DNA from: Octopus sinensis
Taxonomy: Eukaryota
Direction of reading: 5' to 3'
NCBI RefSeq assembly: GCF_006345805.1
Contig: NW_021836180.1
Coordinates: 124,001-188,000 of the forward strand
Length of the DNA stretch: 64,000 nucleotides
In this document: in pieces, positions 8,724 to 49,586 of the stretch
Layout: every line of letters starts with the position of its first letter
Position numbering within the stretch: the stretch's first letter is position 1
Translations under genes and position numbers: made by a program
The notes under the pieces: model-generated
Database searches by the model: none
What the model saw: the letters and a program-made list of their open reading frames with translations, nothing else
Told to the model about the DNA's origin: nothing

Positions 8724-9447
8724 TACCTTTTGACTGACAGATTTTAAAAATAATTTTTTGTAACTAAACACTTTCAAACTTCGTATACTGGTAGAATGTG
8801 TCACATAAAACATCTTTTAATCTTGGCGTTGTTGAGAAAATTCTGTATTTTGGAAGTTATTTCTTGTTAAAGTTGTCGTATTTTGGTAATTTCAACCAAT
8901 CAATGACGTGTATTCAGCTGAATAAAATTACTGCTGTTGTTTGTTAACTACAACTATTGGCGTGTTTGTCACTGTTATTTTTGACATTGTTCATGCATTT
9001 GTACTGGTTTTAGCTTTAAGGTGTTAGGGTTAGGATTTTAGGGTTAAGGTTTTAGGGTTAGGGTTTTAGAGTTAGGTTTAAGGTTTTAGGGTTAGGGTTG
9101 GGGTTTTAGGGTTAGGGTTACGGAAAAAAATGAAAAATGAAGCACGAACAATTATGGTGGTGCTATAAAGTAAACATGCTTCAGATACACTCGTTTATTC
9201 ATACAAACGTAACTGAGATTAAATATGTCATAAATAAAACGACAAACGAAATATACACTGCCGGAAGTTGTTGATAAGAAACAACAGCATTAATTTTATT
9301 CATCTGAATACACGTCATTGATTGGTTGAAATTACCGAAATATGACAACTTTAACAAGAAATAACTTCCAAAATTTGAGAATTTTCTGTGACACATTCTT
9401 ACCAGTATACGAAGTTTGAAAGTGTTTAGTTACAAAAATTATTTTTG
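8724..9447. mobile_element. Foldback element with ~200-bp TIRs around degenerate (TTAGGG)n (copy at ~34950-35674)
   Basis: Arms at ~8750-8955 and ~9267-9447 are reverse complements. Telomere-like repeats at 9011-9120. Single-arm relatives at ~5030-5290 and ~7440-7640. Confidence 0.7.
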
Positions 9448-10266
9448 TTACAAAACTTTACAACCATGATATTTAGGGTTCAGTCCCACAAGACAATACC
9501 TTCAGCAAGTGTCTTCTATTATAGCCGAGAGCAGACCAATTCCTTGTGAGTGTGTTTGGTACACAGGAACAGGGTGGAGGCCCATTTTGTGTGTGTGTGT
9601 GAGTGTGTTTATTATACCTCCTCATAATTTAGCTGTTCTACCATAGAGACTGATGGAATAACTACCCAATTTTAAAATAAATGAGTTTTGGGGTTGATGT
9701 GTTTAACTAAAAAATGCCTTTTAGGTTGTGACTTAGAATGGCTGCAGTCCAACGACCAAAATGAGTTGTGGATAAAAGACGGGATATGGTATACACATAG
9801 TTACATTAAAATTCCGATTCACAAAACGTGTACAGGGCCAGAAATGTGTGTAGAGTATGTAATTGATTTAATCAATTTTATTTCTTAATTGGCCATTCTT
9901 TTATGGACATCAAAAGCATAAAAAGCAAAGCCAAGATTGGTGACTATTGCACCTACAGCTAAAAAAAGAAAAAAATCAAATAATTCAGTTCCATGCAGAG
10001 TTAAATGTTCAGTACTCAGTTTGAATGTCTTTAAACTTCATATATTCATATTGCACACAGAAAATAACACAAGTTCAATAAATATAAGGATTATGGTTTT
10101 ATATTTTATTATATTTTACAGCTGTATAGATATATAAAATATTTGTTTATTGATCTGTTACAGGAATTAGCTGAGTAAAAGTAATGATATACAAGTTAAA
10201 ATGTTAAGGTATTTTTCTCAGTTATACAGTAGTGAAAGTCTTAAAATATGAAATAAACAGAAATTG

Positions 10267-11038
10267 TTAGGCAACCATTTTGTTTTTTATGAAGTTTGTA
10301 GCTTTTTCTAGTAACTTCTCTGAATACAGTGGTTGTATATTCTGAGATTCCAGCCACACAATTGCTTTCTTTTCAATAAATTCCCATTCACAGTGCTGGG
10401 AAGCTAATTTTTCTCTTAGTACAGCAACAACAAGAGCTGTAGCCCATACTTTATCACTAACAGATGGATTCTCTTTGTTCAGATCCTTAAGAGAAATATT
10501 GAGAGCTTGAGCCAATTGATCATCTAGATTCCAGAAACCAGAGAAAGCTTGTAGATCAACCAAACCTGTTAAAATGTCCTTAATTGTTCCCTTTGAAGAG
10601 GTTAAGTCTGAGTGAGGTGACTGTCTTGAATTCTCAGCATTTATACTTAAGGAATTATTTATGGAAGCATACATTCCAGCTATATCTTCTCTCGGACGTA
10701 CTGGCATTGGCATAGAGTGTTGTAAAACTCTGTTGTAAAACTTACGGAACATTCTTACTATTGCAGGAACATTCTTACTACGAGAACGCCTGGCTTTAGG
10801 TGTAAATGTCCTAGAGACTGTTTGAATAGCAACTGGAACATGTTCATCCAAAGCAACAAAACTTGTGTACTTTGAAACTAAATTAGCCATTGTACCCAAA
10901 TCGATAATCTCTGATTTTATTTCATCACCTTTACCCAAATCTTCATTTAATTCCAATTCCTGTATTTTCCTTTTCACACAAAGACGGTGTATTGTCATTT
11001 CCTTATTATTCTGTCCCAACAACCTTGCTTCAAAATCA
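10267..11038 (-). pseudogene. VWA5A-like copy A, 3' fragment only (VIT, vWA and splice acceptor deleted)
   Basis: Nearly identical to the 3' third of copy C. At 11038/11039 the sequence jumps from the equivalent of 37265 to the equivalent of 39774, a 2.5-kb deletion. Confidence 0.85.
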
Positions 11039-12043
11039 GTGAAGACATTTGACTTTGCTAACACTGAATATGGATTCCATAAGTTTTGTGATAAAACTCT
11101 TCCAACATATTCCTGTGTCTTACAACACTACCCAACAAGTTGTACTTTTGGTCTTTAGTGTTTGTTCTATATTATCCCATCATGAAACTAAAATGGATTC
11201 ATCTTAATTTTCATTCTTTTACTTGTTTCAGTTATTAAACTGCGACCATACTGGGGCACTGACTTGAAGATGTGAGTAGAGCAAATCTCTTAACAGAAAT
11301 CCAGAATAAGATGTACACATAAATGTCAAGGTTTTTCAAATAGTATCTAATATCATAAGAATGATAGTAATGATGAACCAAGATAAAATACAGATGTGAT
11401 AAACGTAGGATAGAGTTTTATACAATTATTTGTCTCAGATATTTATTTATTAAACCCCGTTTCGTTAAGGAATTTCTAATGACAAAAGACAATATGAAGC
11501 CTGGTGAGTAATGAACCTATAGCTACATAATGATTATTTTACTTAGTTTTGTAGAGTTAAATGCTTGCTACTCAGTTTGAATGTCTTTAACTGTTTCTCT
11601 ACTATATTTCAGTTGAAATGCATGGCATTTGTTTTGATTAATTTTCAAAATAATGAAGAATTTAGTGATATAACTTTGTCATTATTAAGCTGGTGTTTGG
11701 GACATAAACTACAACGATGTTTTGAGGGAAGGTTATAATTTCATAACAAACAGGAAGTTTGTGTCACTGAATCCCCAAAAGTGCGTAAATGGTTTTTTTC
11801 AATCTTGTTTTTAGTCTTGGAAATATATTTACATTTCACACAAAAAAATAACACAAAATCAACAAATATAGGATTATGGCTCTATATTTCATTATATTTT
11901 ACAGCTGTATAGATATATAAAATATTTGTTTACAGATATTTTAGAGGAATTAGTAAAGTATTGATATACAAGTTAAAATGTTAAGGTATTTTTCTCGGTT
12001 ATACAGTAGTGAAAGTTTTAAAATATGAAATAAACAGAAATCG

Positions 12044-14338
12044 CTAGGCAACCATTTTGTTTTTTATGAAGTTTGTAGCTTTTTCTAGTAACTTCTCTGA
12101 ATTCATTGGTTGTATATTCTGAGATTCCAGCCACTCAATTGCTTTCTTTTCCATTAATTCCCATTCACAATGCTGGGAAGCTATTTTTTCTCTTAGTACA
12201 GCAACAACAAGAGCTGTAGCCCATACTTTATCACTAAGAGATGGATTCTCATCGTTCAGATCCTTAAGAGAAATATTGAGAGCTTGAGCCAATTGATCAT
12301 CTAGATTCCAGAAACCAGAGAAAGCTTGTAGATCAACCAAACATGTTAAAATGTCCTTAATTGTTCCCTTTGAAGAGGTTAAGTCTGAGTGAGGCGACTG
12401 TCTTGAATTCTCAGCATTTATACTTAAGGAATTATTTATGGAAGCATACATTCCAGCAATAACTTCTCTTGGACGTACTGGCATTGGCTCTGATTGTTGT
12501 AAAACTTTTTTGGACTTACACAAAAGTTTTGGTTGTGGCGAAGAAGCACAATAACGTATGGCTCTATGTTTTGGAGCTGCCATAGAGGCCATTTGAAAAT
12601 CCAATCGAACATGTTCATCCAAACCAACAAAACTTGTGTACTTTGAAACTAAATTAGCCATTGTACCCAAATCGATAATCTCTGATTTTATTTCATCACC
12701 TTTACCCAAATCTTCATTTAATTCCAATTCCTGTATTTTCCTTTTCACACAAAGACGGTGTATTGTCATTTCCTTATTATTCTGTCCCAACAGACTTGCT
12801 TCAAAATCAAGTGAAAAGTCTGATTCACCAATTTTACCACAAAGATTCAATTTCACATTTTTGCAACTAGTCTCAGCTTCATGCAAAACTAGATAAAGGA
12901 TTAATTTTTCTTCACTGAAAATACATGGCAGCCTTTCTGGAACTGAAATAAAGGATAATTCTTTATTGTTTTCACCATGTTTAGCAGAGAGACAAACCGA
13001 AGATACAAATGGTTGCATTGACAATTTTAATAAACGCATAACTTTTGCCTTAAGGTTGTCGTTTGTCATCACAAACTCTGCTTGTCCCTTCCCTGCGCGG
13101 GCAATACCTTTGACCAATTCTGTAGAAGCTCCAGAACCAATACCAATTGTGAAGTATCGTGTGTTGTTTACTTGTGACTTGACCAATTGAATGACATCGT
13201 TTGTGTTGTAGACAGCACCATCAGTTATTAAGAATACTTGTCGATGGAAATTTTGAAATGGTTTTTTGTCAGAGAGTGATTTCAGTGCACTAAGAATTTC
13301 TGTCCCTCCCGAAGCATATAGATTTTTCTGAAATTTCAATGCTTCATTCAGAGAATCTTCACTATATTCTCGGCTTCCTTCTTTGAACAGAAATTCAAAA
13401 TCATTATTGAAGCTGATAGCATTAAATGAGCAACCCAAAGGTAAACTTTTTAAGAAAAGTAACAAAGTATCTTTTGCTGCTTCAATTTTCTCTCCAGTCA
13501 TGCTTCCTGAGCGATCAATAACAAAAATATAGTCATTAGCGGCAGATTGTTTTACTTGCGGAAGTTCTGGAAACACATTTATCATCATAATATCTTTAGA
13601 AAACATTCCTTTAGAATTCTCATCTCTTTTCTCTAAAATTACTTGTGGTTTTTCTACATCTTCATAGTACACTTGCAGAAGAAGGTCTTTCTCAAAATTG
13701 AATTCCTTTGCCATTCTCACAGTAGCATGACACTTGTTATCCTGATATTCCACGTTAACTGGATGTTCTGATTTGATGTCTTTGATTTGTGAATTCCAGT
13801 TGACAGAGGCATTGAAACTAAACTCTTTTGGTTTAGGTGCATTTTGATAATTTTCATCTGCAGGTTTAAGACCATATCTGGGATTAAGCACAAATGGCAT
13901 ATGAAATTTCACTGCCCCATCAACTTCACAAGAAAGTTCAGAAACAAGGCATATTTGTAAATGGATCTTTTCATTTGCTGGAATATTACCTAAACTATAC
14001 TCAAAAATATCGCCAGATGTACTTGTCTCTCGCAACAAAATGGCAGACTGACCTTTATCTACAGCTTGTTTGTATTCCTTTTTGGCAACATCTTTGTCTT
14101 TAGATTTGGCAACTAAATGGACATCACCAATTTTAGCTTCGAATTTATATACGGCACTGTCTTCTTCCACAGGGAAAACAAACTTAGCTTCTGTCTTGTG
14201 TTGGCTTTCATTTATATATTCAGCCTCGATGTTGACGTGTGACGTAAAACCATTAATGGAAATCGTGTGTGTGGCATAGAGAAGAGAAACCTTTGTTTTA
14301 TTTTCACAGATGATTCCAAATACCATTAGTCTATTCAT
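12044..14338 (-). CDS. VWA5A: VWA5A-like protein (VIT + vWA + C-terminal helical region), copy B, intact 764 aa, intronless CDS
   Basis: Open 764-aa ORF. N-terminal VIT domain (EAKFVFP..SAVYKFEAKIG..GDIFEYSLGNIPANE), vWA MIDAS elements FVIDRSGSM, GGTE and LITDG, and C-terminal LQAFSGFW..VWATALVVA..W..EKKA..WL typical of VWA5A/PARP4-type proteins. No hydrophobic signal peptide. The symbol is a family-level call. Confidence 0.9.
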   Translation of the reverse strand: MNRLMVFGIICENKTKVSLLYATHTISINGFTSHVNIEAEYINESQHKTEAKFVFPVEEDSAVYKFEAKIGDVHLVAKSKDKDVAKKEYKQAVDKGQSAILLRETSTSGDIFEYSLGNIPANEKIHLQICLVSELSCEVDGAVKFHMPFVLNPRYGLKPADENYQNAPKPKEFSFNASVNWNSQIKDIKSEHPVNVEYQDNKCHATVRMAKEFNFEKDLLLQVYYEDVEKPQVILEKRDENSKGMFSKDIMMINVFPELPQVKQSAANDYIFVIDRSGSMTGEKIEAAKDTLLLFLKSLPLGCSFNAISFNNDFEFLFKEGSREYSEDSLNEALKFQKNLYASGGTEILSALKSLSDKKPFQNFHRQVFLITDGAVYNTNDVIQLVKSQVNNTRYFTIGIGSGASTELVKGIARAGKGQAEFVMTNDNLKAKVMRLLKLSMQPFVSSVCLSAKHGENNKELSFISVPERLPCIFSEEKLILYLVLHEAETSCKNVKLNLCGKIGESDFSLDFEASLLGQNNKEMTIHRLCVKRKIQELELNEDLGKGDEIKSEIIDLGTMANLVSKYTSFVGLDEHVRLDFQMASMAAPKHRAIRYCASSPQPKLLCKSKKVLQQSEPMPVRPREVIAGMYASINNSLSINAENSRQSPHSDLTSSKGTIKDILTCLVDLQAFSGFWNLDDQLAQALNISLKDLNDENPSLSDKVWATALVVAVLREKIASQHCEWELMEKKAIEWLESQNIQPMNSEKLLEKATNFIKNKMVA

Positions 14339-22288: not shown

Positions 22289-25200
22289 TGTGGAATGACG
22301 TCAGCAGCTGGACGTCAGCAGCCGGGTGCGTTGACCGGAAGCTAGGGCAACCGGAAGGGGTCAGCGTCAGGCGTGCGCAGGGAGCGGGGAGGGGAATTGC
22401 GCCCTTTCCAACGTGGGTCGTGGAGGTGACAAGACGTGTGAGGACGTCGCTAAGGGTTTGGGCTAGCAGCTGCTATCGTTAGTGTTCGGGTCGGGGCTGT
22501 GTGGAAGGACTAGTCACCGCTGGAGGGTCTCCGTCACTAAGAAGAGAAGGTAGGTGCCTCTATATTCAAATCGCGCACACACTACAAGCTATTTCGGCCA
22601 TTCTTAAACATTTACATTGTTTCAACACGATGTCCGCAAAAATTAGGATCGCCAGTGACGTCATCAGACCTTTTAATAGCGAAGGCGATTGTAGTGGCCT
22701 GGATTCGCAAAATCAGGCTGGTGGCAAGACTGCAGGGCATAAGCGACGTGGCGAGTCTTTATGGGCGTGTATTTAGAAGGGAGTGCGTTAACGCTATACC
22801 TAGAGATGGATGAAGAGGAACGGCTCAGCGAGAGAGAATATAGAGACGACGTTGTGTGATGCCTACACGGAATGCGAGTACACAGCTTTTGCTAAGCTAG
22901 GTGCAATCAGGTGGACGGGAGGCCAAGTGGATGACTTTGCATCAGAAGTTAGAAGGCTGGCGACTCTGGCCGGGTTTGCGGGAGAGGGACTGAGAGAGAG
23001 CAGCCCGATTGGGTTCGTGAATGGGTTTCCCCGACGATGTAGGGATTCACCTACAACGACTGCCCGGGGTTAAAAAGATGCCGTTGAGCGAACTTGTAGC
23101 TCAGGCTCGCGTGTTGACGAGACACTCTGGGCGGAAGGCGATAGCGATGGCGGTGCGGACTGGAGGCGCGTAAAGACGGACGACGTCCCGAGAGAAAGAG
23201 GTACAGAAGCTTACCGTGCAACGACAGCGGCCGTTCTCAGGACGGTGTTTTAGATGCCAGGGACCCACACATGGCGCGGGACTGTATGCAAGCGGGGCCC
23301 GTTTGCTATCGATGCAGGCAGACAGGGCACATTGCCCGTGATTGCGACCAGGGAAACGACCGCGGGGAAATTGCTGCTTCTCGAACTTTCCCCTCAAATG
23401 AGTAGAGGTGGCTATTGGAGACACTGCCATTGATTGACGTGGAGGCCGAGGGGGGGAGACGTTCAGGCCCTTGTGGATACGGGCTGTACGACCCCCTGGG
23501 TGACTTAGAGGGTGACGAAGGAATGGAACGGGGTGAGTAGTGTCCGGGCGTGCGGCGGTCGCGGCAGTGAAATCCGTTGCAGAGGCAGCAGAAGGTAGAG
23601 ATAGTGTGTGCGCGGCACGACGCTAAGGCTGCAGGCAATTGTGGCCGAACGAACATGATGAGATGTATAGAGGAGTTGACTGGGGATGGGGATGGATGCC
23701 ATCAACTGCCTCGGTGGCGTCGTGTGTGGGAAATGAGGTCATGTTCGGAAGCGTGGGGGCGTCGTGCACTGCAAGTCAGGATCGCCAGAGAGAGCAGAGC
23801 CCCGCGAGGGACTGCGCAGCTTACCACCATCGAGGACAAAGACTTTCAGGCTGCGTTCGATGGTCAGCGTGGTGGGACGATAGAGTGGCGATGGAAGGAC
23901 GGCCCCCGACGCTGGAGAACAGGGTGAGCTGTTACCAGCATACCCTGAAAGGCCACGCCAGAGTCGAGTTTGAAGACGAGGTGGAGAGGTGGATCGAGGA
24001 AGGGGTCCTTGTCCTTGGAAGGAGGAGGTAGCGGGCGGAGTGCTACTCCTGATGGCGGTGGTTGCAGCCTACGAAGGGAAAAGTCAGACCGGTGCTGGAC
24101 TTCAGGGAGCTAAACCAGCACATATCGTGTCACACGGGAGGTGAGGCGACAGACGTTCTGTGCGAGGCATTACGTAAGTGGAGACAGTCGCTGAGGCGGC
24201 GCGATTTGTCGACTTGAGATCGGCATACTTGCAGCTCCATGTGAGCGACAAACTGTGGCGATATCAGCTTGTGCGGTACAAGGGCCGGACGTTCTGTCTA
24301 ACCAGGCTGGGTTTCGGGCTGAATTCCGCTCCGAAAGATCATGGCGGCAGTGCTTAGGTCCGTCCTAGGGAAAGACGGCAAGATTAGAAAGGCCACCAGC
24401 TCCTACATTGACGACATTTTGGTGGACGAAACTGTAGTGCCAGCCGACGAGGTAGTTAGACATCTGGAGGAGTTCGGACTGATTGCTAAGCCACCGGAGT
24501 CGATTGAAGGGGGAGCCGCGCTGGGGCTGAAGCTGCGAAGAGTTGGATCAGGTGAATTGGTGTTCTGGAGAGGAAATGAATCCCAGAGCTGAGTTCCAGC
24601 GTCAGCAGGAGAGAGCTGTTCTCGGTGTGTGGGAAGTTGGTCGGTCACTACCCGATCGCTGGATGGCTGCGCACGTGCGTGTAGTTACACCAAAGACGAG
24701 CAGAAAGGAGAGAGGTGGGCGGGCGCCAAGGTGGGAGAAGGGACGCGGTGGCGATGATGCAGGAATCCTAGAGAGGACAAGAGCGGAAGACCCGGTCGGG
24801 GGGGGGGGAACTGGTACGTGCAAGACGAAATGCGGGACTGTCTGGTGTGATGCTAGCAGTATAGCGATAGGGGTGGTATTGGCAATCGAAGGCACTGCGT
24901 GGTGGAGGACGCGGCCTGGCTTTGGAAAGCAGATGATTTCAACCACATCAATGTCGCCGAATTAGACGCGGCTGCTGAAAGGGGTGAACTTGGCCTTGAA
25001 ATGGGGGCTGCGCACAATTGAATCCGGACGGATTCGGCACTGTGCTTGGCTGGGTAGGATCGGTGATCACCGGTGACAGGAGAGTGCGACGAAAGGTGCT
25101 GTGGAGATGTTAGTGAAGCGCCGTCTAGGAGTTCTAGGTGAATTGATCGCCGAGTTCGGACTGAAGCTGAACGTGGTTTTCGAGCCTTCGGAGAAAAACG

Positions 25201-26578
25201 AGAGAAGGGACAGGGCGGAAGTACTGACCAGGGTGAAAAGAGCGTGGTTGGAAGAACTGGAGGAGGCCGGAAAGGGATAGCTGTGGCGTGTTGGTTGGAT
25301 GACTCTGAACTGAAGAAACTGCATGATATGCATCACCTGGGTGTGGACAGGACCCTGTATCTGGCAAAAAAAATTGATGCTGACGTCACTAGGAGAAGCG
25401 TCCGGAAGGTGGTCGGGGCTGAGCTTGTGAGGTGTCAGTCCATCAACCCTGCTCCGTGTGGGCATGACAGGGAAGCCTTTCCGTGGAGCAGGACTGGAAA
25501 AAGCTAGCTGTGGATGTGACACACTACCGTCAGCAAATGTACCTCTCCATGATCGACTGCGGGGCCGGGCCGGCTGGCCATTTTGGAGGAGTTGAGATCG
25601 GGCATTGCTGACGAGATTGCGCAGATCCTGAACAGGATATTTTTAGAGAGAGGTCCCGTGGAAGAACTACTGATGGACAAGGGCAGCGTTTCGTTCGGAA
25701 GCATTGAGGGTTTATGCTTGATCGGTGGAATGTGCGACGCTTGTTCAGAGCAGCGTATAGGCTGAGCGGTAACGGGATCGTGGAGAGGCACCATGGCACA
25801 TACGGACAGTCAAGGCCATAGCGGAAAGAGGGTACATTTCGCCACTTGAAGCAGTTTTTTTGGTACAACTTGTCTCCCCGATCTGGACAAGCTGAGGAAT
25901 CTGTGCTGCAGAGAGCTGTGTTTCAAATATGAATGGAGGGCACCCGAGCAAAGTGCCGGAGGGTCACGAGAGAAGAGAAGGGACCCGTTGCGTGTGAAAA
26001 TAGGGGGAGGAAGTCTGGGTCAAGCCACCAAAGGCGCGCTGTACGTCTCAATGGAGCAGAGGAACGGTGACGGCGATCAATTCCAGAAGCAACGTATCCG
26101 TAGATGGAACACCACGACACGTCTTGGACCTTCGCAAGATTGTTGCTTCAACGGACGATGATTCTGGAGGGGGGAGAGAACGAGGAGGCCCAGCTTCAGA
26201 AGATCTCGACGAGCAAGCGCTCTCCCGGTTGGATGGTGGACTACAACATGGAGCGGAGAGATTGTGATCTTTAAGATCGGTGGGGTGTGGGTGGCGTGTG
26301 GGATGACGTCAGCAGCCGGGTGCGTTGACCGGAAGCTAGGGCAACCGGAAGGGGCCAGCGTCAGGCGGCGTGGTGCGCAGGAGCGGGGAATTGCGCCCTT
26401 TCAACGTGGGTCGTGGAGGTGACAAGAATGTGTGAGGACGTCGCTAAGGGTTTGGGCTAGCAGCTGCTATCGTTTAGTGTTCGGGTCGGGGCTGTGTGGA
26501 AGGACTAGTCACCGTGGAGGGGTCTCCGTCACTAAGAAGAGAAGGTAGGTGCCTCTATATCAAATCGCACACACTACA
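22289..26578 (+). mobile_element. Second copy of the same LTR retrotransposon insertion, indel-riddled
   Basis: Same flanks and CCCAG TSD (22284-22288 and 26579-26583), LTRs at 22289-22586 and 26297-26578, many small indels relative to 48485-52694. Confidence 0.92.
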
Positions 26579-29405
26579 CCCAGTATGGCCACATCTCTAA
26601 TGACTGAAGCAATGTATATATATATATAAATATGAGGTAACAAACAAAGGAAAAAATTCCTTCAAAGGTATGTGTAAAACATCCAATTCACTTGTATGTT
26701 GTTGAATACCACATAAATATGGTATAATGTAAATTACGTATAATAAATTAAATAGAGAGTTACAAATGACAATCAAATAATTATTTATATCATAATATAA
26801 CATAATATACTATGAATATAATATAAGAAACAATCATTTAAAAAAACAAAATAGCAAACATTTGTTTCGACTTATATACATTTTTTAATATATAAACAAT
26901 TTCAATTCCCTTATATATAAGCCTCATCAGGGGCAAGGTGCTGTGAATTGTAGAAAGAACTTCTTCATTTGTGTTGTGTCATGTCTTCAATATTTTGAAG
27001 AATTGTATTATTGAAGTGAAATATTTCAGTCCCGCATCACTGCGTCTTGTTCATCTCATTTCGCTAGTCGCTCTCTTTTATTCAACTTGCTCTTACGACC
27101 ATACTCGCTTCATGGAGTATGGTTGAAAGGCAAAGTCGACCTCGGCGGAATTTGAACCCAGAACGTAACAGCAGATGAAATATGGCTACGCATTTCGCCC
27201 AGTGTGCTAACAACTCTGCCAGCTTGCCGCCTTTGCTAAGTTACAGGAATGTAAACACAGCAACACCAGTTAGCAAGCAATTGTTGGGCTACAAACACAA
27301 AACATGCACACACATACACATATACACGACAGTCTTCTTTCAGTTTCCGAGTACGAAATCCACTTACAAGGTTTTGGTTGACCTGAGGCTATAATAAGCA
27401 TATATATATTATATATATAGTAGCTGACATACCCCGTAATTTCCAGGAAAGCGGGCTCATCCCTTAGTTCTGTTCTCATAATTGTTTTGCTAATTCAGTA
27501 ACAACAATACAAAGTATGTAGCCCTTAAAGTATGTAGCCTTGAGAATACCGAACTGTCTTACAAAGGATCTTGTTTTTTGGAATTCCCAATAAGTTATGA
27601 ATACTCAAATTGTGAAGTCAGTTATGTAATAACATGAAATTTATTACCCTATAGTAAGAATTCAAATAATGTAGCCCCAAAAAGGGCTTTAATATGTTCC
27701 CAGAGTATATAGATTTTAGGAGGAAATACTAAATGCTTTTGTGCGTTCCCAGAGAATATTCCCCTCAGCAGCGCTAGTGTTGCTATATTTGTGAATAAGT
27801 CACTAACCGAAATAAGTGGATCTATTGTTTAGGAGAATACTATTTACTTGTTTAAGCGTTGTCTTGGATAAATTGAGAAAATAACTAAAGGAGAATACTA
27901 TTTACTTGTTTAAGCGTTGTCTTGGATAATTGAGAAAATAACTAAAACACTCAAATACTAAGAAATAAGCATAATGAAAATGAATGGGTTATTCCCCCTT
28001 GATGGTTATTCCAGGAGGGAATGGGTTATTTCCCTTGGAAGCTTAAAATAATTACTCACACCGTTCACTCATGCCCAAAGTTATTCCTCTTGCTGTTTAC
28101 CCGAACATTTTTTCGAAATCAATTAATACTTAAAACCTCCCCAGATACATAAGGAATGTACGTTGAAGTTTAAGAAAATTGGTCAAGCCATTTTGATGCA
28201 AAAACGAGACATACCGATACACACACACACGCACAACCACTTTCAGTTTTAATATATAAGATTTACTGGCTTCTTTCAGTTTCTGTCTACCAAATCCACT
28301 CACAAGGTTTTAGTTGTCCCAAGGCTGTAATAGAAGACACTCGCCCATGATGCCACGCAGTGAGACTGAACCTGGAACCATGTGGTTGGGAAGCAGGCTT
28401 CTTACCACAAAGCCATGCTGTGCCTTACATATATACGTGTGGATATATGCACACATATATACAAAAAAGATGTATGCATATGAAATATAATGGGTGTATG
28501 TGTGTTTGTGTGACCAACTAGAAGTACATAGAACTGAATACGGCATGCAAAAAGTAAATAAAAAAAATTTTCTACGTAAATTAATGAACAATCAAATTTT
28601 GACAGTTCTGAGGGATATACCGAAAGAATGTCCGTTTAACTTTTATATTTTTCTTTGTTTCAGTTATTAAGACTGTGGCCATGCTGGGACATCGTCTTGA
28701 AGAATGTTTTTACTTGTATGAATTGATCCCAGAACTATTTTCTTTTTTCTTTATGTCTGGAACTTATTCATTAGTTTCTTTAGCCAAACCGCTAAGTTAC
28801 AGAGATGAAAACACCAACACTGGTTGTCAAATGGTGGCGGGGGGGGGGGCAAACACTGACACACACACACCTGACAGGCTTCTTCTAGTTTCCATCTACC
28901 AAATCCACTCACAGGGCTTTGGTCGGTCCAAGGCTCTCGTAGATAATGCATACCCAAGGTGCCATGCAGTGGGACTGAACCCGAAACTATGTGGTTGGGA
29001 AGCAAGCTTCCTACCACACAGTCCTCTTACAATGAATAGATGTTTAGCAGACTCTCTCTCTCTCTGTTATATATACATGAGTACGGACGTAGTAGATAAC
29101 AGCTAGCCTTTGGCCACTGTTTTGCACCCTGTTGTATTGGTTGGTATTGGCGCACTTTTGTCTCTTGCTCTGTTACACACCAATGTGCAACCCAACCAAT
29201 CGAAGCCTTCTATCAACCGTGTAGTGTACTAAAGGGGCCTTTCTCATCACCTCTCCTTCGCATGGTCGTTTACAGATAATACACCTGACATCCTGTCTGA
29301 CAGGTACGGGACTTAAATAGGAAGATCGCCTCGGTTTTATTTAAGTTCTATCTTTATGCCATCTTTATTACCTCTGGCATTTTAAAAGCTTTATATAATA
29401 CAAAG

Positions 29406-32970: not shown

Positions 32971-35900
32971 CTTTATATAAATAAATAACGTGAAATACAC
33001 GAAGAGACGAACAAAAAGACAAACAAGTCATTCAAGCCTTTATTCTTCAGTCAGAAACTGATCCCTCATCGCAGATTTCGGCTGTTTAATTCTGAGATCC
33101 GCTCTGAATCAGCCAGCCACAGAAGGAAAGAATGAAACGCAACAGAGACGAACAGGAAACAAAAAATCTTTTTTGGGGACAGTAACGATTGAAAACATGA
33201 ATGACACAGGCACCCTACGGCTTTGAGACAAACAGAGAGACACAAAAATAATAATAATATGTATATATATATATATATTCCTCTTTATATATATAGTGAT
33301 ATACTACAATAAACATATTTCGATTGGAAAAACAACAAAAAATGAGGAATGTAAAAACTAATTGCGAAACGAAATAGTTTCATTTGGTGTAAACGGATGC
33401 AATATGTATCCTTGTGTAAATAATATTATCATAGTTAAACCAAGCTGTGAATAAGCCAAAGATTTGGTGTTGGTGTTGATAGCTAATCGTATATCTCTTG
33501 TGTGCCATGTTTGTCATTGTAGATTCTGTGATCAAATCCTGGAGGGGGTTTCCTCAATGCAAGGGGTCTATCCTGCATACATTGTAACGTATAGTCTGTT
33601 ATTCAATTACTTGTTTTAATTATTGGACATCTGCCATGTTGGGGCACTGTTTTCAGAGGTTTAGTTATCTTTTCGCTTTGACCGGCAGATTTTAAAAATA
33701 ATTTCTTTGTAACTAAACACTTTTAAACTTCGTATACCGGTAGAATGTGTTTATAAAACATCTTTTTCTCTTGGCTTTCTTGAGAGAATTATGTAGTTTG
33801 TAAGCTATTTGTTGTTTAATTTCTTGCATTTCGGCAATTTCAACCAATCAATGACGTCTATTGAGGTGAATTTTTTTTTAACCTTGAAATACTGTAAATG
33901 TGTGTGTTTCTTTTGATGAAAGGGTGTTTTAAGAGAGATTTGCTATATTTGTAGTAGCTCAAGTTACCAGACACACACACACGTGTGTGTGTGTGTGTGT
34001 GTGTGCATGTGTGTTTTGTTGTGGGGAAAAAAATACTTTCTCTCGGAATATTTTGCACGATAATTTTTAAAGAAATCTGGTCATCTTTCTTACTGCCAAC
34101 CATCCCACTTCAGATTACAATTGTTAATTGTTGGAAGTCAAGTAGACTGAGATGCACATATACTGTTACCGTATAGAGTGGAAGTTCAATACGAAGTCTT
34201 GAACTCATTATCCTGTGGTTAGTAACCCATTACCTTAAAGTTGAAACCATTAAGTCTTTAAACATTATTTTGTTTGGTTTTCTTTCGACTGTTGCCATGA
34301 TGATGTATCGCCTTCAAAAATTTAATTGATCATACTGACCTCAATACGTATTTCAATCTGGCATTTATTTTATAGATCTCTGCTTGATGAACTTCTAACT
34401 TGGAGACATAGTGGGACGAATGACTGTGTAGTTGAGAAGTTTGCTTCCCAACCATATGGTTCCATGTTCAGTCGCTTTGCATAGTAGCTTGGGCAAGTGT
34501 TTTCTACTATAGCCCCTAGATCAACCACAGATATCTGACTGAATTTGGTAAACGGAAACTGCAGGGTTGTTAATCACAAAATGACCGAAAAGCATGTTCA
34601 TAAGGTAGAGTTGTTTGCTTCATGTTCCACGTGTGCTAATTCTGCCCGTAAGAAAGAAACAATGTGACTGTAGGTCATTACACCTGGGCAACTATACACC
34701 TAAAACCACACTAATAGCTTAGGAGTGAAATTTAGGATTTCACAGTTTTCTGTGAATTGATTTTGATAAAACTTTTCCCAGCTGGTTTGCACACTATAGC
34801 AACACTATTGTTTTGTTTTCATTATTTTGCGTAACGTCCTTTCATTTTTTTTTATTTCAGATTCTTCAGTTTTTGGGTGTACCACACTAATAACTTTTAA
34901 ATGAAAATAGTCTATCTAGACATTTTTCCAGAAAGTGAAGGGGGATCTTTACCTTTTGACTGACAGATTTTAAAAATAATTTTTTGTAACTAAACACTTT
35001 CAAACTTCGTATACTGGTAGAATGTGTCACATAAAACATCTTTTAATCTTGGCGTTTTTGAGAAAATTCTGTATTTTGGAAGTTATTTCTTGTTAAAGTT
35101 GTCGTATTTTGGTAATTTCAACCAATCAATGACGTGTATTCAGCTGAATAAAATTACTGCTGTTGTTTGTTAACTACAACTATTGGCGTGTTTGTCACTG
35201 TTATTTTTGACATTGTTCATGCATTTGTACTGGTTTTAGCTTTAAGGTGTTAGGGTTAGGATTTTAGGGTTAAGGTTTTAGGGTTAGGGTTTTAGAGTTA
35301 GGTTTAAGGTTTTAGGGTTAGGGTTGGGGTTTTAGGGTTAGGGTTACGGAAAAAAATGAAAAATGAAGCACGAACAATTATGGTGGTGCTATAAAGTAAA
35401 CATGCTTCAGATACACTCGTTTATTCATACAAACGTAACTGAGATTAAATATGTCATAAATAAAACGACAAACGAAATATACACTGCCGGAAGTTGTTGA
35501 TAAGAAACAACAGCATTAATTTTATTCATCTGAATACACGTCATTGATTGGTTGAAATTACCGAAATATGACAACTTTAACAAGAAATAACTTCCAAAAT
35601 TTGAGAATTTTCTGTGACACATTCTTACCAGTATACGAAGTTTGAAAGTGTTTAGTTACAAAAAATTATTTTTGTTACAAAACTTTACAACCATGATATT
35701 TAGGGTTCAGTCCCACAAGACAATACCTTCAGCAAGTGTCTTCTATTATAGCCGAGAGCAGACCAATTCCTTGTGAGTGTGTTTGGTACACAGGAACAGG
35801 GTGGAGGCCCATTTTGTGTGTGTGTGTGAGTGTGTTTATTATACCTCCTCATAATTTAGCTGTTCTACCATAGAGACTGATGGAATAACTACCCAATTTT

Positions 35901-36493
35901 AAAATAAATGAGTTTTGGGGTTGATGTGTTTAACTAAAAAATGCCTTTTAGGTTGTGACTTAGAATGGCTGCAGTCCAACGACCAAAATGAGTTGTGGAT
36001 AAAAGACGGGATATGGTATACACATAGTTACATTAAAATTCCGATTCACAAAACGTGTACAGGGCCAGAAATGTGTGTAGAGTATGTAATTGATTTAATC
36101 AATTTTATTTCTTAATTGGCCATTCTTTTATGGACATCAAAAGCATAAAAAGCAAAGCCAAGATTGGTGACTATTGCACCTACAGCTAAAAAAAGAAAAA
36201 AATCAAATAATTCAGTTCCATGCAGAGTTAAATGTTCAGTACTCAGTTTGAATGTCTTTAAACTTCATATATTCATATTGCACACAGAAAATAACACAAG
36301 TTCAATAAATATAAGGATTATGGTTTTATATTTTATTATATTTTACAGCTGTATAGATATATAAAATATTTGTTTATTGATCTGTTACAGGAATTAGCTG
36401 AGTAAAAGTAATGATATACAAGTTAAAATGTTAAGGTATTTTTCTCAGTTATACAGTAGTGAAAGTCTTAAAATATGAAATAAACAGAAATTG

Positions 36494-38792
36494 TTAGGCA
36501 ACCATTTTGTTTTTTATGAAGTTTGTAGCTTTTTCTAGTAACTTCTCTGAATACAGTGGTTGTATATTCTGAGATTCCAGCCACACAATTGCTTTCTTTT
36601 CAATAAATTCCCATTCACAGTGCTGGGAAGCTAATTTTTCTCTTAGTACAGCAACAACAAGAGCTGTAGCCCATACTTTATCACTAACAGATGGATTCTC
36701 ATCGTTCAGATCCTTAAGAGAAATATTGAGAGCTTGAGCCAATTGATCATCTAGATTCCAGAAAACAGAGAAAGCTTGTAGATCAACCAAACCTGTTAAA
36801 ATGTCCTTAATTGTTCCCTTTGAAGAGGTTAAGTCTGAGTGAGGTGACTGTCTTGAATTCTCAGCATTTATACTTAAGGAATTATTTATGGAAGCATACA
36901 TTCCAGCTATATCTTCTCTCGGACGTACTGGCATTGGCATAGAGTGTTGTAAAACTCTGTTGTAAAACTTACGGAACATTCTTACTATTGCAGGAACATT
37001 CTTACTACGAGAACGCCTGGCTTTAGGTGTAAATGCCCTAGAGACTGTTTGAATAGCAACTGGAACATGTTCATCCAAAGCAACAAAACTTGTGTACTTT
37101 GAAACTAAATTAGCCATTGTACCCAAATCGATAATCTCTGATTTTATTTCATCACCTTTACCCAAATCTTCATTTAATTCCAATTCCTGTATTTTCCTTT
37201 TCACACAAAGACGGTGTATTGTCATTTCCTTATTATTCTGTCCCAACAACCTTGCTTCAAAATCAAGTGAAAAGTCTGATTCACCAATTTTACCACAAAG
37301 ATTCAATTTCACATTTTTGCAACTAGTCTCAGCTTCATGCAAAACTAGATAAAGGATTAAATTTTCTTCACTGAAAATACATGGCAGCCTTTCTGGAACT
37401 GAAATAAAGGATAATTCTTTATTGTTTTCACCATGTTTAGCAGAGAGACAAACCGAAGATACAAATGGTTGCATTGACAATTTTAATAAACGCATAACTT
37501 TTGCCTTAAGGTTGTCGTTTGTCATCACAAACTCTGCTTGTCCCTTCCCTGCGCGGGCAATACCTTTGACCAATTCTGTAGAAGCTCCAGAACCAATACC
37601 AATTGTGAAGTATCGTGTGTTGTTTACTTGTGACTTGACCAATTGAATGACATCGTTTGTGCTGTAGACTTCACCATCAGTTATTAAGAATACTTGTCGA
37701 TGGAAATTTTGAAATGGTTTTTTGTCAGAGAGTGATTTCAGTGCACTAAGAATTTCTGTTCCTCCTGAAGCATATAGATTTTTCTGGAATTTCAATGCTT
37801 CATTCAGAGAATCTTCACTATATTCTTGGCTTCCTTCTTTGAACAGAAATTCAAAATCATTATTGAAGCTGATAGCATTAAATGAGCAACCCAAAGGTAA
37901 ACCTTTTAAGAAAAGTAACAAGGTATCTTTTGCTGCTTCAATTTTCTCTCCACTCATGCTTCCTGAGCAATCAATAACAAAAATATAGTCATTAGCGGCA
38001 GATTGTTTTACTTGCGGAAGTTCTGGAAACACATTTATCATCATAATATCTTTAGAAAACATTCCTTTAGAATTCTCATCTCCTTTCTCTAAAATTACTT
38101 GTGGTTTTTCTACATCTTCATAGTACACTTGCAGAAGAAGGTCTTTCTCAAAATTGAATTCCTTTGCCATTCTCACAGTAGCATGACACTTGTTATCCTG
38201 ATATTCCACGTTAACTGGATGTTCTGATTTGATGTCTTTGATTTGTGAATTCCAGTTGACGGAGGCATTGAAACTAAACTCTTGGTTTAGGTGCATTTTG
38301 ATAATTTTCATCTGCAGGTTTAAGACCATATCTGGGATTAAGCACAAATGGCATATGAAATTTCACTGCCCCATCAACTTCACAAGAAAGTTCAGAAACA
38401 AGGCATATTTGTAAATGGATCTTTTCATTTGCTGGAATATTACCTAAACTATACTCAAAAATATCGCCAGATGTACTTGTCTCTCGCAACAAAATGGCAG
38501 ACTGACCTTTATCTACAGCTTCTTTGTATTCCTTTTTGGCAACATCTTTGTCTTTAGATTTGGCAACTAAATGGACATCACCAATTTTAGCTTCGAATTT
38601 ATATACGGCACTGTCTTCTTCCACAGGGAAAACAAACTTAGCTTCTGTTTTGTGTTGGCTTTCATTTATATATTCAGCCTCGATGTTGACGTGTGACGTA
38701 AAACCATTAATGGAAATCGTGTGTGTGGCATAGAGAAGAGAAACCTTTGTTTTATTTTCACAGATGATTCCAAATACCATTAAACAATCCAT
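36494..38792 (-). CDS. VWA5A: VWA5A-like copy C, 2-bp frameshift at ~38282 (766 aa if repaired); pseudogene or sequencing error
   Basis: ORFs 38274..38831 (likely ATG at 38792, MDCLMVFG) and 36494..38347 join if 2 T are restored (CTCTTGG vs CTCTTTTGG in B/D). MIDAS reads DCSGS. Confidence 0.85.
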
Positions 38793-41895: not shown

Positions 41896-44282
41896 CTAGG
41901 CAACCATTTTGTTTTTTATGAAGTTTGTAGCTTTTTCTAGTAACTTCTCTGAATTCATTGGTTGTATATTCTGAGATTCCAGCCACTCAATTGCTTTCTT
42001 TTCCATTAATTCCCATTCACAATGCTGGGAAGCTAATTTTTCTCTTAGTACAGCAACAACAAGAGCTGTAGCCCATACTTTATCACTAATAGATGGATTC
42101 TCTTTGTTCAGATCCTTAAGAGAAATACTGAGAGCTTGAGCCAACTGATCGTCTAGATTCCAGAAACCAGAGAAAGCTTGTAGACCAACCAAACATGTTA
42201 AAATATCTTTATTTGTTGACCCAGAAGACATAAAGGATTCCTCATCAGTCACACGTCGTACTTTAAATGGGGGAGGCATGCAACTTGAATCCACAGAATC
42301 AGCACCAAAAGAATCACCATCATCAGAGTCATCCTCCAATTCATCATCAATGTCATCTACTCTTTCAGCAACTACAGAATTTTGATTGTATGCTTGTGGT
42401 GAAGCTAAACACATCATTGGCATGCAACGCCTTTTCATAAATTCTGGAACATGTTTCTTCACACCAAACGCTTTTATTCGTGACGAAGAAACATAACCAC
42501 ACATGGCACTACGTGTTGGAGCTACCAGAGAGGCCATTTGAAAATCCAATCGAACATGTTCATCCAAACCAACAAAACTTGTGTACTTTGAAACTAAATT
42601 AGCCATTGTACCCAAATCGATAATCTCTGATTTTATTTCATCACCTTTACCCAAATCTTCATTTAATTCCAATTCCTGTATTTTCTTTTCACACAAAGAC
42701 GGTGTATTGTCATTTCCTTATTATTCTGTCCCAACAGACTTGCTTCAAAATCAAGTGAAAAGTCTGTTTCACCAATTTTACCACAAAGATTCAATTTCAC
42801 ATTTTTGCAACTAGTCTCAGCTTCATGCAAAACTAGATACAGGATTAATTTTTCTTCACTGAAAATACATGGCAGCCTTTCTGGAACTGAAATAAAGGAT
42901 AATTCTTTATTGTTTTCACCATGTTTAGCAGAGAGACAAACCGAAGATACAAATGGTTGCATTGACAATTTTAATAAACGCATAACTTTTGCCTTAAGGT
43001 TGTCATTTGTCATCACAAACTCTGCTTGTCCCTTCCCTGCGCGGGCAATACCTTTGACCAATTCTGTAGAAGCTCCAGAACCAATACCAATTGTGAAGTA
43101 TCGTGTGTTGTTTACTTGTGACTTGACCAATTGAATGACATCGTTTGTGTTGTAGACTTCACCATCAGTTATTAAGAATGCTTGTCGATGGAAATTTTGA
43201 AATGGTTTTTTGACAGAGAGTGATTTCAGTGCACTAAGAATTTCTGTCCCTCCCGAAGCAAATAGATTTTTCTGGAATTTCAATGCTTCATTCAGAGAAT
43301 CTTCACTATATTCTCGGCTTCCTTCTTTGAACAGAAATTCAAAATCATTATTGAAGCTGATAACATTAAATGAGCAACCCAAAGGTAAACTTTTTAAGAA
43401 AAGTAACAAAGTATCTTTTGCTGCTTCAATTTTCTCTCCACTCATGCTTCCTGAGCGATCAATAACAAAAATATAATCATTAGCGGCAGTTTGTTTTACT
43501 TGCGGAAGTTCTGGAAACACATTTATCATCATAATATCTTTAGAAAACATTCCTTTAGAATTCTCATCTCCTTTCTCTAAAATTACTTGTGGTTTTTCTA
43601 CATCTTCATAGTACACTTGCAGAAGAAGGTCTTTCTCAAAATTGAATTCCTTTGCCATTCTCACAGTAGCATGACACTTGTTATCCTGATATTCCACGTT
43701 AACTGGATGTTCTGATTTGATGTCTTTGATTTGTGAATTCCAGTTGACGGAGGCATTGAAACTAAACTCTTTTGGTTTAGGTGCATTTTGATAATTTTCA
43801 TCTGCAGGTTTAAGACCATATCTGGGATTAAGCACAAATGGCATATGAAATTTCACTGCCCCATCAACTTCACAAGAAAGTTCAGAAACAAGGCATATTT
43901 GTAAACGGATCTTTTCATTTGCTGGAATATTACCTAAACTATACTCAAAAATATCGCCAGATGTACTTGTCTCTCGCAACAAAATGGCAGACTGACCTTT
44001 ATCTACAGCTTGTTTGTATTCCTTTTTGGCAACATCTTTGTCTTTAGATTTGGCAACTAAATGGACATCACCAATTTTAGCTTCGAATTTATATACGGCA
44101 CTGTCTTCTTCCACAGGGAAAACAAACTTAGCTTCTGTCTTGTGTTGGCTTTCATTTATATATTCAGCCTCGATGTTGACGTGTGACGTAAAACCATTAA
44201 TGGAAATCGTGTGTGTGGCATAGAGAAGAGAAACCTTTGTTTTATTTTCACAGATGATTCCAAATACCATTAGTCTATTCAT
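41896..44282 (-). CDS. VWA5A: VWA5A-like copy D, 1-bp frameshift at ~42685 (795 aa if repaired); pseudogene or sequencing error
   Basis: ORFs 42663..44282 and 41896..42696 join if one C is restored (TTTTCTTTTC here vs TTTTCCTTTTC in the other copies). 10 aa differences from B over the first ~533 aa, plus a unique acidic linker. Confidence 0.85.
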
Positions 44283-46410: not shown

Positions 46411-48821
46411 CAGTAGTAGTACAAATGGGAGTAGTAGAAGCAGCAGCTTTAGTCATTTTTATTTTAGCTCAGACATGATTAAGGTAACCTAATTTCAAAG
46501 GTATTCTAACCATTAAAATCCTGTCTTTTTGTTAATTGAAGGAGGCTTGGCACTAGTTCTAGCATGTTGAGTGACTACATAGCATAAGAATGAAAGTAAT
46601 TTTAAGGAATGCTCTCAAAAGCTATTCAAATAAACTGATATTGCCCTCAAATTTCGAAATGCATAAAAATACAGCAATCGGTCATAGACTCATGTCATGT
46701 ATTAATTATATATACTCTTCTACTTGTTTCAGTCATTTGACTGTGGCCATGCTGGAGCACCGCCTTAAGTCGAACAAATCGACCCCAGGACTTATTCTTT
46801 GTAAGCCTAGTACTTATTCTATTGGTCTCTTTTGCTGAACTGCTAAGTTACGGGGATGTAAACACACCACCATCGGTTGTCAAGCTATGTTGGGGAGAAC
46901 AAACACAAACACATAAACACTCACACAAGTATACATATATATATATATATACGACGGGCTTAGTTTCCATCTACCAAATCCACTCACAAGGCTTTGGTTG
47001 GCCCGAGGCTATAGTAGAAGGCACTTGCCCGAGGTGCCATGCAGTGGGAATGAACCTGGAACCATGTGGTTGGTAAGCAAACTACTTAGCTCACAGCCAC
47101 TCCTGCACCTATATAAAAAATGAAATATGCAGCATGTTGACAGAGCAGCTAACTGGCTTCCATACCAGTGGCACATAAAAAGCACCATTCGCGTGTGATC
47201 GTTACCAGTATTGCCTTACTAGCACTTGTGCGCGTGCTAGTAGGGTGCCAAGAGCACCATCCGAGTGTGATTGTTGCCACAGGGCACCATTCATGCATGA
47301 ACGTTACCAGCGCGGCCTTACTGGCACCTGTGCCGGTAGCACGTGTAAAAAGATTCGAGCGAGGTCATTGCCAGTACCGCCTGACTGGCCTCCGTGCAGA
47401 TGGCATGTAAAAAGCACTCACTACACTCTCGGAGTGGTTGGCGTTAGGAATGGCATCCAGCTGTAGAAACTCTGCCAGATCAAGATTGGAGCCCGGTGCA
47501 GCCATCTGGTTTGCCAGCCCTCAGTCAAAATCGTCCAACCCGTGCTAGCATGGAAAGCGGACGTTAAACGATAATGATGATGATGATGTGAATTTCGTGC
47601 GCAGAAACTGTGTGGAAGCCATCTTTGTGTCTGAGTATAATATATATATGAATATATGTGTGTGTGTTTGTGTGTATGAGCACAGGTGTAGCTGTGTGGT
47701 AAGAAGTTTGCTTCCCAACCATATGCTTCTAGGTTCAGTCCCACAGGGTGGAACATTTGAGCAAATGTCTTCTACTATAGCCTCGGGGACAAGTGAAGCC
47801 TAATAAGTGGATTTGGTAGACAGAATCAGAAAGAAGCACAGTGTGTGTATGTGTGTGTGAGAGAGAGAGTATTTCTTTATTCACCATAAGGTTGAGAAAA
47901 AGAGGGGACAAAACAAACGTTGGGGTCAGGGTATCGAATGAGACGAAACGTATGAATAAACAAACAATTAAAATCTATACAATTAAATGAGAATGAGTGA
48001 ATAACAAAAAATGAAGCAGAGGACGCAGTTGACCCCACAAACCCCATACTCACACTGAAGACTTTGCTTTCTCCTTTTTTACATTCTCAATTAAACAGGT
48101 TCTTTCACTCGCAACATATTTGCTATAGACTTCTATCTTTTACGAAACACACTTTGCGACAGGCATTTCTTCTCCAGCCTTATTTTCCGTTTCATGTGGA
48201 AAACGAAAAAGTTGATTAGCTGGAGACTGGAGATAAACATGCCTGTTGCAATTCCTTTTACTCTCGTCTTCTTTCACCATAGCAACTACCGAGAGAAAAC
48301 AGGCTCGCTCCTCCCTAAGAGTCCGTGTATCTCCTTTTGTCCTCCACCACAACTGGTGTTTGTTTGCTTAAGTGTATGTAACTTAGCAGTTCGACAAAAT
48401 AACCAACAGAATGAGAACCAGGGTTAAACAAAAAATATTGGAGTCAATTCGTTTGGCTAAAATCTCTTCAAGATGGTGCCCCAGTGTGGAATGACGTCAG
48501 CAGCTGGACGTCAGCAGCCGGGTGCGTTGACCGGAAGCTAGGGCAACCGGAAGGGGTCAGCGTCAGGCGTGCGCAGGGAGCGGGGAATTGCGCCCTTTCC
48601 AACGTGGGTCGTGGAGGTGACAAGACGTGTGAGGACGTCGCTAAGGGTTTGGGCTAGCAGCTGCTATCGTTAGTGTTCGGGTCGGGGCTGTGTGGAAGGA
48701 CTAGTCACCGCTGGAGGGTCTCCGTCACTAAGAAGAGAAGGTAGGTGCCTCTATATTCAAATCGCGCACACACTACAAGCTATTTCGGCCATTCTTAAAC
48801 ATTTACATTGTTTTCAACACG

Positions 48822-49586
48822 ATGTCCGCAAAAATTAGGATCGCCAGTGACGTCATCAGACCTTTTAATAGCGAAGGCGATGTAGTGGCCTGGATTCGCA
48901 AAATCAGGCTGGTGGCAAGACTGCAGGGCATAAGCGACGTGGCGAGTCTTATGGCGCTGTATTTAGAAGGGAGTGCGTTAACGCTATACCTAGAGATGGA
49001 TGAAGAGGAACGGCTCAGCGAGGAGAATATAGAGCGACGCTTGTGTGATGCCTACACGGAATGCGAGTACACAGCTTTTGCTAAGCTAGGTGCAATCAGG
49101 TGGACGGGAGGCCAAGTGGATGACTTTGCATCAGAAGTTAGAAGGCTGGCGACTCTGGCCGGGTTTGCGGGAGAGGGACTGGAGAGAGCAGCCCGATTGG
49201 CGTTCGTGAATGGGTTCCCCGACGATGTAGGGATTCACCTACAACGACTGCCCGGGGTTAAAAAGATGCCGTTGAGCGAACTTGTAGCTCAGGCTCGCGT
49301 GTTGACGAGACACTCTGGGCGGAAGGCGATAGCGATGGCGGTGACGGAGGCGCGTAAAGACGGACGACGTCCCGAGAAAGAGGTACAGAAGCTTACCGTG
49401 CAACGACAGCGGCCGTTCTCAGGACGGTGTTTTAGATGCCAGGGACCACACATGGCGCGGGACTGTATGCAGCCGGGGCCCGTTTGCTATCGATGCAGGC
49501 AGACAGGGCACATTGCCCGTGATTGCGACCAGGGAAACGACCGCGGGGAAATTGCTGCTTCTCGAACTTTCCCCTCAAATGAGTAG
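48822..49586 (+). CDS. gag: Gag with two CCHC zinc knuckles
   Basis: 254-aa ORF containing CFRCQGPHMARDC and CYRCRQTGHIARDC. Confidence 0.9.
   Translation: MSAKIRIASDVIRPFNSEGDVVAWIRKIRLVARLQGISDVASLMALYLEGSALTLYLEMDEEERLSEENIERRLCDAYTECEYTAFAKLGAIRWTGGQVDDFASEVRRLATLAGFAGEGLERAARLAFVNGFPDDVGIHLQRLPGVKKMPLSELVAQARVLTRHSGRKAIAMAVTEARKDGRRPEKEVQKLTVQRQRPFSGRCFRCQGPHMARDCMQPGPVCYRCRQTGHIARDCDQGNDRGEIAASRTFPSNE

Follow-up and report, generated by a model that had tools for sequence, protein, structure and literature searches.

Genes of a VWA5A-like array in Octopus sinensis show localized diversifying selection among paralogs. The array combines a constant scaffold with variable linker cassettes and mosaic copies, and an excess of amino acid change is found only in the head, approximately the first 35 codons, of the basic-type linker. 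We are largely confident that selection is acting on this head. The fuller reading, in which the excess reflects diversifying selection on a surface for a variable partner, possibly a pathogen protein, appears reasonably probable, and a host-pathogen interface as the cause, suggested by analogy, is plausible and held tentatively. As judged from sequence alignment, the selected head occupies the position equivalent to exon 30 of PARP4.

Array copies and linker types

The window analyzed here (the whole stretch of DNA, 64,000 nucleotides) contains four copies, A, B, C and D, in duplicated blocks of roughly 26 kb. The genome holds at least 12 copies, at least ten on C12651 and at least two on C16, and beyond these a more distant paralog is found on C10225. 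The relevant features are the following (other copies are labeled c and x).

10265..11043, minus strand: copy A, a 3' fragment only (core end, A/C-type basic linker and C-terminal domain; head 10729-10836)
12044..14338, minus strand: copy B, an intact VWA5A-like gene with one exon and one ORF, coding for 764 aa (VIT domain, VWA domain, disordered linker, helical C-terminal domain)
13502..13516, minus strand: MIDAS motif D275-x-S277-x-S279 in the VWA domain of B (coordinates computed from residue numbers)
12506..12607, minus strand: linker head of B, aa 578-611, the segment under diversifying selection
12533..12583, minus strand: the 17 codons singled out by the first-pass annotation, aa 586-602, the densest part of the B linker head
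12359..12607, minus strand: basic-type linker of B, aa 578-660, predicted to be disordered; omega 2.7 over seven copies
12047..12358, minus strand: helical domain at the C-terminus of B, a likely homologue of MINT, the domain of PARP4 that interacts with MVP
36492..38792, minus strand: copy C, full-length, with A/C-type basic linker (head 36956-37063), lacking 2 nt in its 5' part as assembled here
41896..44282, minus strand: copy D, VWA5A-like, lacking 1 nt near 42685 as assembled here, through an error or because it is a pseudogene
42466..42552, minus strand: linker head of D, homologous to the B head and containing 42478-42528
42205..42465, minus strand: junction and acidic-type linker of D, the acidic linker being common to c2
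42454-42465, minus strand: junction of D, resembling the linker start of other copies

VWA5A-type proteins are widespread and, to our knowledge, poorly characterized in function. The protein encoded by B contains an N-terminal VIT domain (PF08487, E 4e-28) and a VWA domain (PF13768, E 7e-23) whose MIDAS-motif residues are invariant in all 85 sequences of the family alignment, as are T346 and D373. The nearest named database proteins are VWA5A-like proteins of Octopus, and most of the named ones among the best 120 matches bear this label; the octopus protein probably belongs to the VWA5A clade and is neither PARP4 nor ITIH4. In the AlphaFold2 model of B, the core and the C-terminal domain are predicted with confidence, and pLDDT is below 50 at residues 577-659. 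The C-terminal domain is folded and helical in the model (pLDDT 92) and can be aligned across 66 homologues. No hydrophobic stretch was seen by eye at the N-terminus, and the protein is probably not secreted.

Outside the linker, the full-length copies are ~96-99% identical to B. The linkers are 90-170 aa long and belong to a basic type (B, c9 and c10; A, C and x11) or an acidic type (c2, c1 and x12), the two being strongly different in charge. Across copies, four to five different residues are found at each of the positions 586, 591, 592 and 594. Searches of the protein collection for further B-type linkers yielded one and four matches, with no new linker of that type among them.

Several linkers are composite. 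In copy D, a B-type head is joined, through a junction like the linker starts of other copies, to a c2-type acidic linker, and c9 combines A-type and B-type segments, a mosaicism that suggests gene conversion or unequal exchange. The first-pass annotation, which compared B with D, mentions neither the mosaic nature of D nor its frameshift (one missing base), which lies upstream of the head; in D, the compared segment stops a few codons short of the mosaic junction. In the A-type heads, there is an out-of-frame repeat of 15 nt at offset 20, indicative of a short templated duplication. Small deletions are present in C and c2, and c9 and c10 carry more than 20 indels each, in the case of c9 together with a stop in the linker tail. 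These indels and frameshifts are probably in part long-read errors; should D, c9 and c10 be genuine pseudogenes, some of their divergence arose without selection.

Several additional observations concern the array and its surroundings. Copies c3 and c4 (C12651:108066-112136) are nearly identical to A and B (10268-14338), with one difference in 2295 nt for B; either the duplication is very recent or the assembly contains the region twice. Copy c1 (C12651:74553-77052) has a 168-aa acidic linker with an apparent internal duplication and, in its VWA domain, a G278R replacement at the MIDAS-adjacent glycine together with a cluster of substitutions. The paralog lineage represented by C10225:32633-34333 (proteins P0009-P0011) has a short linker of 50-51 aa that is well conserved in two Octopus species and Argonauta, in contrast to the variable linkers of the array. 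Two NCBI models, XP_036356118.1 and XP_036356115.1, have a B-type core followed by an A-type 3' end (10265-14338); in XP_036356118.1, the switch lies between residues 516 and 571, where there is a single AG/GT site. Either the annotation has mixed up tandem duplicates or the last exon is an alternative one. A contig of run X1 spans the B-A gap (10992-11951), and no B-to-A joint is found among 15 of 26 joints in sequencing-run contigs. A GC-rich LTR-retrotransposon-like element is located at 48732-51736 on the plus strand (zinc knuckle, RVT_3, DUF7047 and integrase zinc domain); it is duplicated with the array unit, a second copy being at ~22300-27000, and the first copy has no long ORF. Finally, short interstitial telomere-like (TTAGGG-type) tracts are found at 9006-9120 and 35232-35346, downstream of A and C.

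Selection on the basic-type linker head

The first-pass annotation drew attention to the alignment of B 12533-12583 with D 42478-42528, both of which are in frame with their own ORFs on the minus strand. Its description of this pair is accurate: the 51 bases contain 13 nucleotide differences that alter the amino acid in 12 of the 17 codons (one codon has two differences), none of them synonymous; the quoted codons are exact, and at each of three gap penalties the gap-free alignment is uniquely optimal. Its caution about a short segment was equally apt. Because the segment was chosen by eye, the B/D pair alone is only suggestive, with a probability of 0.015-0.031 for zero synonymous differences among 13 at a neutral synonymous share of 0.235-0.28, for which 1053 non-coding differences served as a guide to transition bias and CpG effect, and a maximum likelihood p of 0.012. 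Over the whole alignable head, B and D are separated by 19 steps, one of which is synonymous (P ~0.03). The D letter recurs in c9 or c10 at four of the 13 differences and the B letter at eight, one site counting for both; at two, neither letter is present in these copies.

The comparison is between paralogs, not of within-population polymorphism, and was performed with our own codon-model code rather than codeml. Copies c3 and c4 (identical to A and 1 nt different from B, respectively) and the C10225 paralog (82%) were left out, as were c9 and c10 from the core counts; columns 22-29 of the A-type copies and D beyond column 30 (column 34 in the whole-linker codon-model test) were masked or left out. 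The head limits were set after the alignment had been seen, and the whole-linker test is the only one that is not post hoc. In this test (seven copies, 86 codons), omega is 2.73, with an LRT p of 0.003 against omega = 1 (0.006 with doublets); without c9 and c10, omega is 2.8 (p 0.011, or 0.029 with doublets). For the head of the seven copies, the fit contains no synonymous change and omega is at its upper bound (p 2e-6); the signal is retained without B and D (p 0.0004) and also with B, D, C and x11 only, i.e., without the indel-rich c9 and c10 (p 8e-5). For the whole linker of the seven copies, M2a is preferred over M1a (p 0.0004; 0.007 with doublet mutations).

The diversifying selection proposed in the first-pass annotation is thus recovered in a single linker type, over its initial ~35 codons, but does not extend to the rest of the linker, where the basic tail is neutral-like (omega 0.75, p 0.57), or to the acidic types, which are likewise neutral-like (synonymous steps 7/36, 10-11/46 and 11-12/59). 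The core is conserved (omega 0.35, p 1e-6), and omega for the C-terminal domain is 0.58 (p 0.21). Tree-free minimum counts, in which the path with the most synonymous steps is taken, give at most one synonymous step out of 31 in the 17 codons (18 of these steps are new beyond the B/D pair, again with at most one synonymous), at most five out of 54 in the head and 11 out of 76 in the whole basic linker. As to the synonymous changes that additional copies might bring, a point raised in the first-pass annotation, they remain scarce within the 17 codons, whereas the most conservative count for the basic linker outside them is up to 11 of 49, which is neutral-like.

Nonsynonymous steps per codon in the head (49/37) are about four times those in the adjacent tail (16/49), and the synonymous rate in the head is not higher than in the tail; the Fisher test of head versus tail gives p = 0.069. 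Extra alleles by codon position number 15/28/9 in the head versus 24/18/40 in the core. A suppressed synonymous rate, as expected from RNA-level constraint, is not favored because it is the nonsynonymous rate that rises relative to the tail.

Contigs of sequencing runs indicate the presence of a sequence, not its expression; X1 is only guessed to be RNA, and no RNA run was among those listed in the run search. Contigs of runs X1 and X10 match the B linker (12428-12636) letter for letter, as does run X13 over the 186 bases at 12428-12613. Because the linker is exact in three of the four runs, B is not a long-read artefact, as the first-pass annotation had argued. In run X12, one contig has 29 other letters over 10200-12900, and five c9/c10/A-type letters are found in two contigs at 12520-12532, next to the 17 codons. 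The B linker is also identical in a run labeled as another organism. Compared to the O. vulgaris protein P0006, the c1 linker has no substitution and one proline indel, with four substitutions in the core, which suggests that the change is episodic or paralog-specific. The C-type protein of O. vulgaris differs from x11 at three head positions and one tail position and brings two further residue states to the head.

Alternative explanations

If constraint were merely relaxed, linkers would drift at omega of about 1 while gene conversion resets the flanks, and chance along with the choice of segment would account for the rest. The tail and the acidic linkers do fit an omega of about 1, several copies are broken in the assembly, and the B/D pair alone is, as indicated above, weak. 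To these points we can oppose 1043 neutral simulations that allowed for CpG effects, 5% doublets, 0-6 conversion tracts and faster evolution of the head. The observed fraction is reached in none of the 1043 runs for the 17 codons, in three for the head and in 14 for the whole linker, and a best-window scan of the simulated data, which corrects for the choice of segment, produces no match in 1043. The fraction test is conservative because the simulations had fewer steps on average than observed (57, 44 and 23 versus 76, 54 and 31 for linker, head and 17 codons, respectively). Given also that the signal survives the removal of B and D, relaxed constraint as the only cause is largely refuted and appears improbable. 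Micro-duplications, template switching or out-of-frame conversion tracts could mimic clusters of nonsynonymous changes, and the repeat in the A-type heads, the junction in D and the adjacent mismatches that make up 79 of the 1053 non-coding differences speak for this. Nevertheless, the signal survives masking of the repeat tract and the doublet term, all substitution classes are present, the five other frames all contain stops and the gap-free B/D alignment is optimal, so a templated process is very unlikely to be the explanation. Sequencing or assembly error, for which the many indels in some copies on the contig and the almost exact duplication of A/B in c3/c4 might speak, has a negligible probability: about 25% of randomly placed substitution errors should still be synonymous, the B linker is exact in three of four runs, and the five c9/c10/A-type letters beside the 17 codons recur in two contigs of another run. 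Three further candidates were rejected. An overlapping or shifted reading frame is not found, the gene frame being the only one of six that is stop-free in all four B-type copies; A-to-I editing or the imprint of a retro-copy does not match the A/G differences in only 7 of 44 variable columns; and there is no gapped optimum for B/D that would indicate an alignment slip.

A different matter is whether selection, although real, is driven by something other than pathogens, with the heads diverging after duplication for internal roles such as localization, a degron, autoinhibition or binding of a host partner. The c1 and B linkers are stable between taxa, the basic and acidic types differ sharply in charge, and in Dictyostelium development, Vwa1 works together with an F-box protein (PMC10539598). 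Conversely, the repeated change at residues 586, 591, 592 and 594 fits recurrent conflict better than a one-off retuning, and selection in PARP4 was interpreted by its authors as the outcome of host-pathogen conflict (PMC4038475). We consider internal roles unlikely to be the main cause.

Under the preferred reading, diversifying selection on a surface for a variable partner, gene conversion or recent duplication would keep the cores and C-terminal domains alike, unequal exchange would swap and fuse linker cassettes, as in D, and selection would have driven the heads apart after duplication, in episodes. Most likely, the head would contact a variable partner, either as a PARP4-like binding loop or as an ITIH4-like bait. 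A much broader proposal sees in the disordered linker that joins the VIT-VWA core to the MINT-like end an ancient device of the whole VWA5A/PARP4 family for sensing pathogens or baiting proteases, from which octopus would have made a repertoire of swappable cassettes: a constant scaffold in tandem copies with fused cassettes, possibly with the alternative last exon A spliced to core B, and maybe vault-borne. Taken as a whole, this combination is unlikely. The octopus array is a candidate cephalopod intracellular immune gene family, and paralogs that are 96-99% identical except for the linker amount to a ready-made swap experiment.

Relationship to VWA5A, PARP4 and ITIH4

Human VWA5A/BCSC-1 and Dictyostelium Vwa1-5 are described as intracellular VIT-VWA proteins, and VWA5A and Vwa1 have in common a C-terminal domain of 101 aa and lineage-specific expansions (PMC10539598). 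The octopus proteins resemble this clade in the VIT domain, the VWA domain with an intact MIDAS, the ~100-aa C-terminal domain and lineage-specific expansion but differ in forming a tandem array of single-ORF genes whose cores are near-identical and whose linker types can be swapped. In the literature searched, we found no published report of the octopus array or of a selected VWA5A linker; supplementary tables of selection screens may list VWA5A.

In ITIH4, residues 633-713 form an unstructured, variable protease-bait region, and capture is MIDAS-dependent (PMC7793589). The octopus core match ends at ITIH4 residue 607, and both proteins have a VIT-VWA core with a MIDAS followed by an unstructured (in octopus, predicted), variable segment. 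Unlike ITIH4, which is a plasma protein, the octopus protein shows no hydrophobic N-terminus by eye and has a different C-terminal domain. By analogy, the octopus linker may work like the variable regions of PARP4 and ITIH4.

The closest parallel is PARP4, the best match of the octopus core among solved structures (E 4e-98), although the match covers only PARP4 residues 610-1194 and 1545-1641. Residue 575 of B is aligned with PARP4 1180 and, weakly, residues 665-694 with PARP4 1574-1603. Exon 30 of PARP4 (residues 1223-1582) is disordered, variable in length and, in both primates and bats, under positive selection (PMC4038475), and the MINT domain docks on MVP repeats 3-4 (PMC12280208). The profile match between the octopus C-terminal domain and MINT has a c-E of 6e-6 and an independent E of 1.1, and the structural model aligns with PARP4 MINT over 92 residues (Z 6.7, rmsd 3.4, rank 2 of 48,161 chains), the top match being a trypanosome VWA protein (Z 11.9); Foldseek with this domain gives no match at E <= 0.001, and PARP4 is not listed. 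Because the Z score is middling, homology to MINT is likely, not proven. A multi-exon gene for MVP (major vault protein) is present in this genome (C26:23457761-23478072); prediction of a complex between the C-terminal domain and one MVP exon scored 0.00, which is neither support nor counter-evidence.

A homologous core and an end domain that is likely to be homologous flank a disordered (in octopus, predicted), length-variable, positively selected segment in both proteins, and in octopus, too, the selected segment lies between the core and the C-terminal domain. Unlike PARP4, the octopus protein lacks PARP and BRCT domains (no such Pfam match), its linker is 90-170 aa long versus about 360 in PARP4, and the diversity is between paralogs of one genome rather than between orthologs. 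No sequence similarity is detectable between the octopus and PARP4 linkers, and no target of the fast-evolving region of PARP4 is reported in the papers considered. The octopus array would add another, independent instance of selection at the PARP4-equivalent position, and its occurrence in a PARP-less mollusc relative suggests that the interface is tied to the VIT-VWA scaffold rather than to ADP-ribosylation. Tandem families with a fast-evolving loop are a well-known pattern; the notable part is the positional parallel with PARP4.
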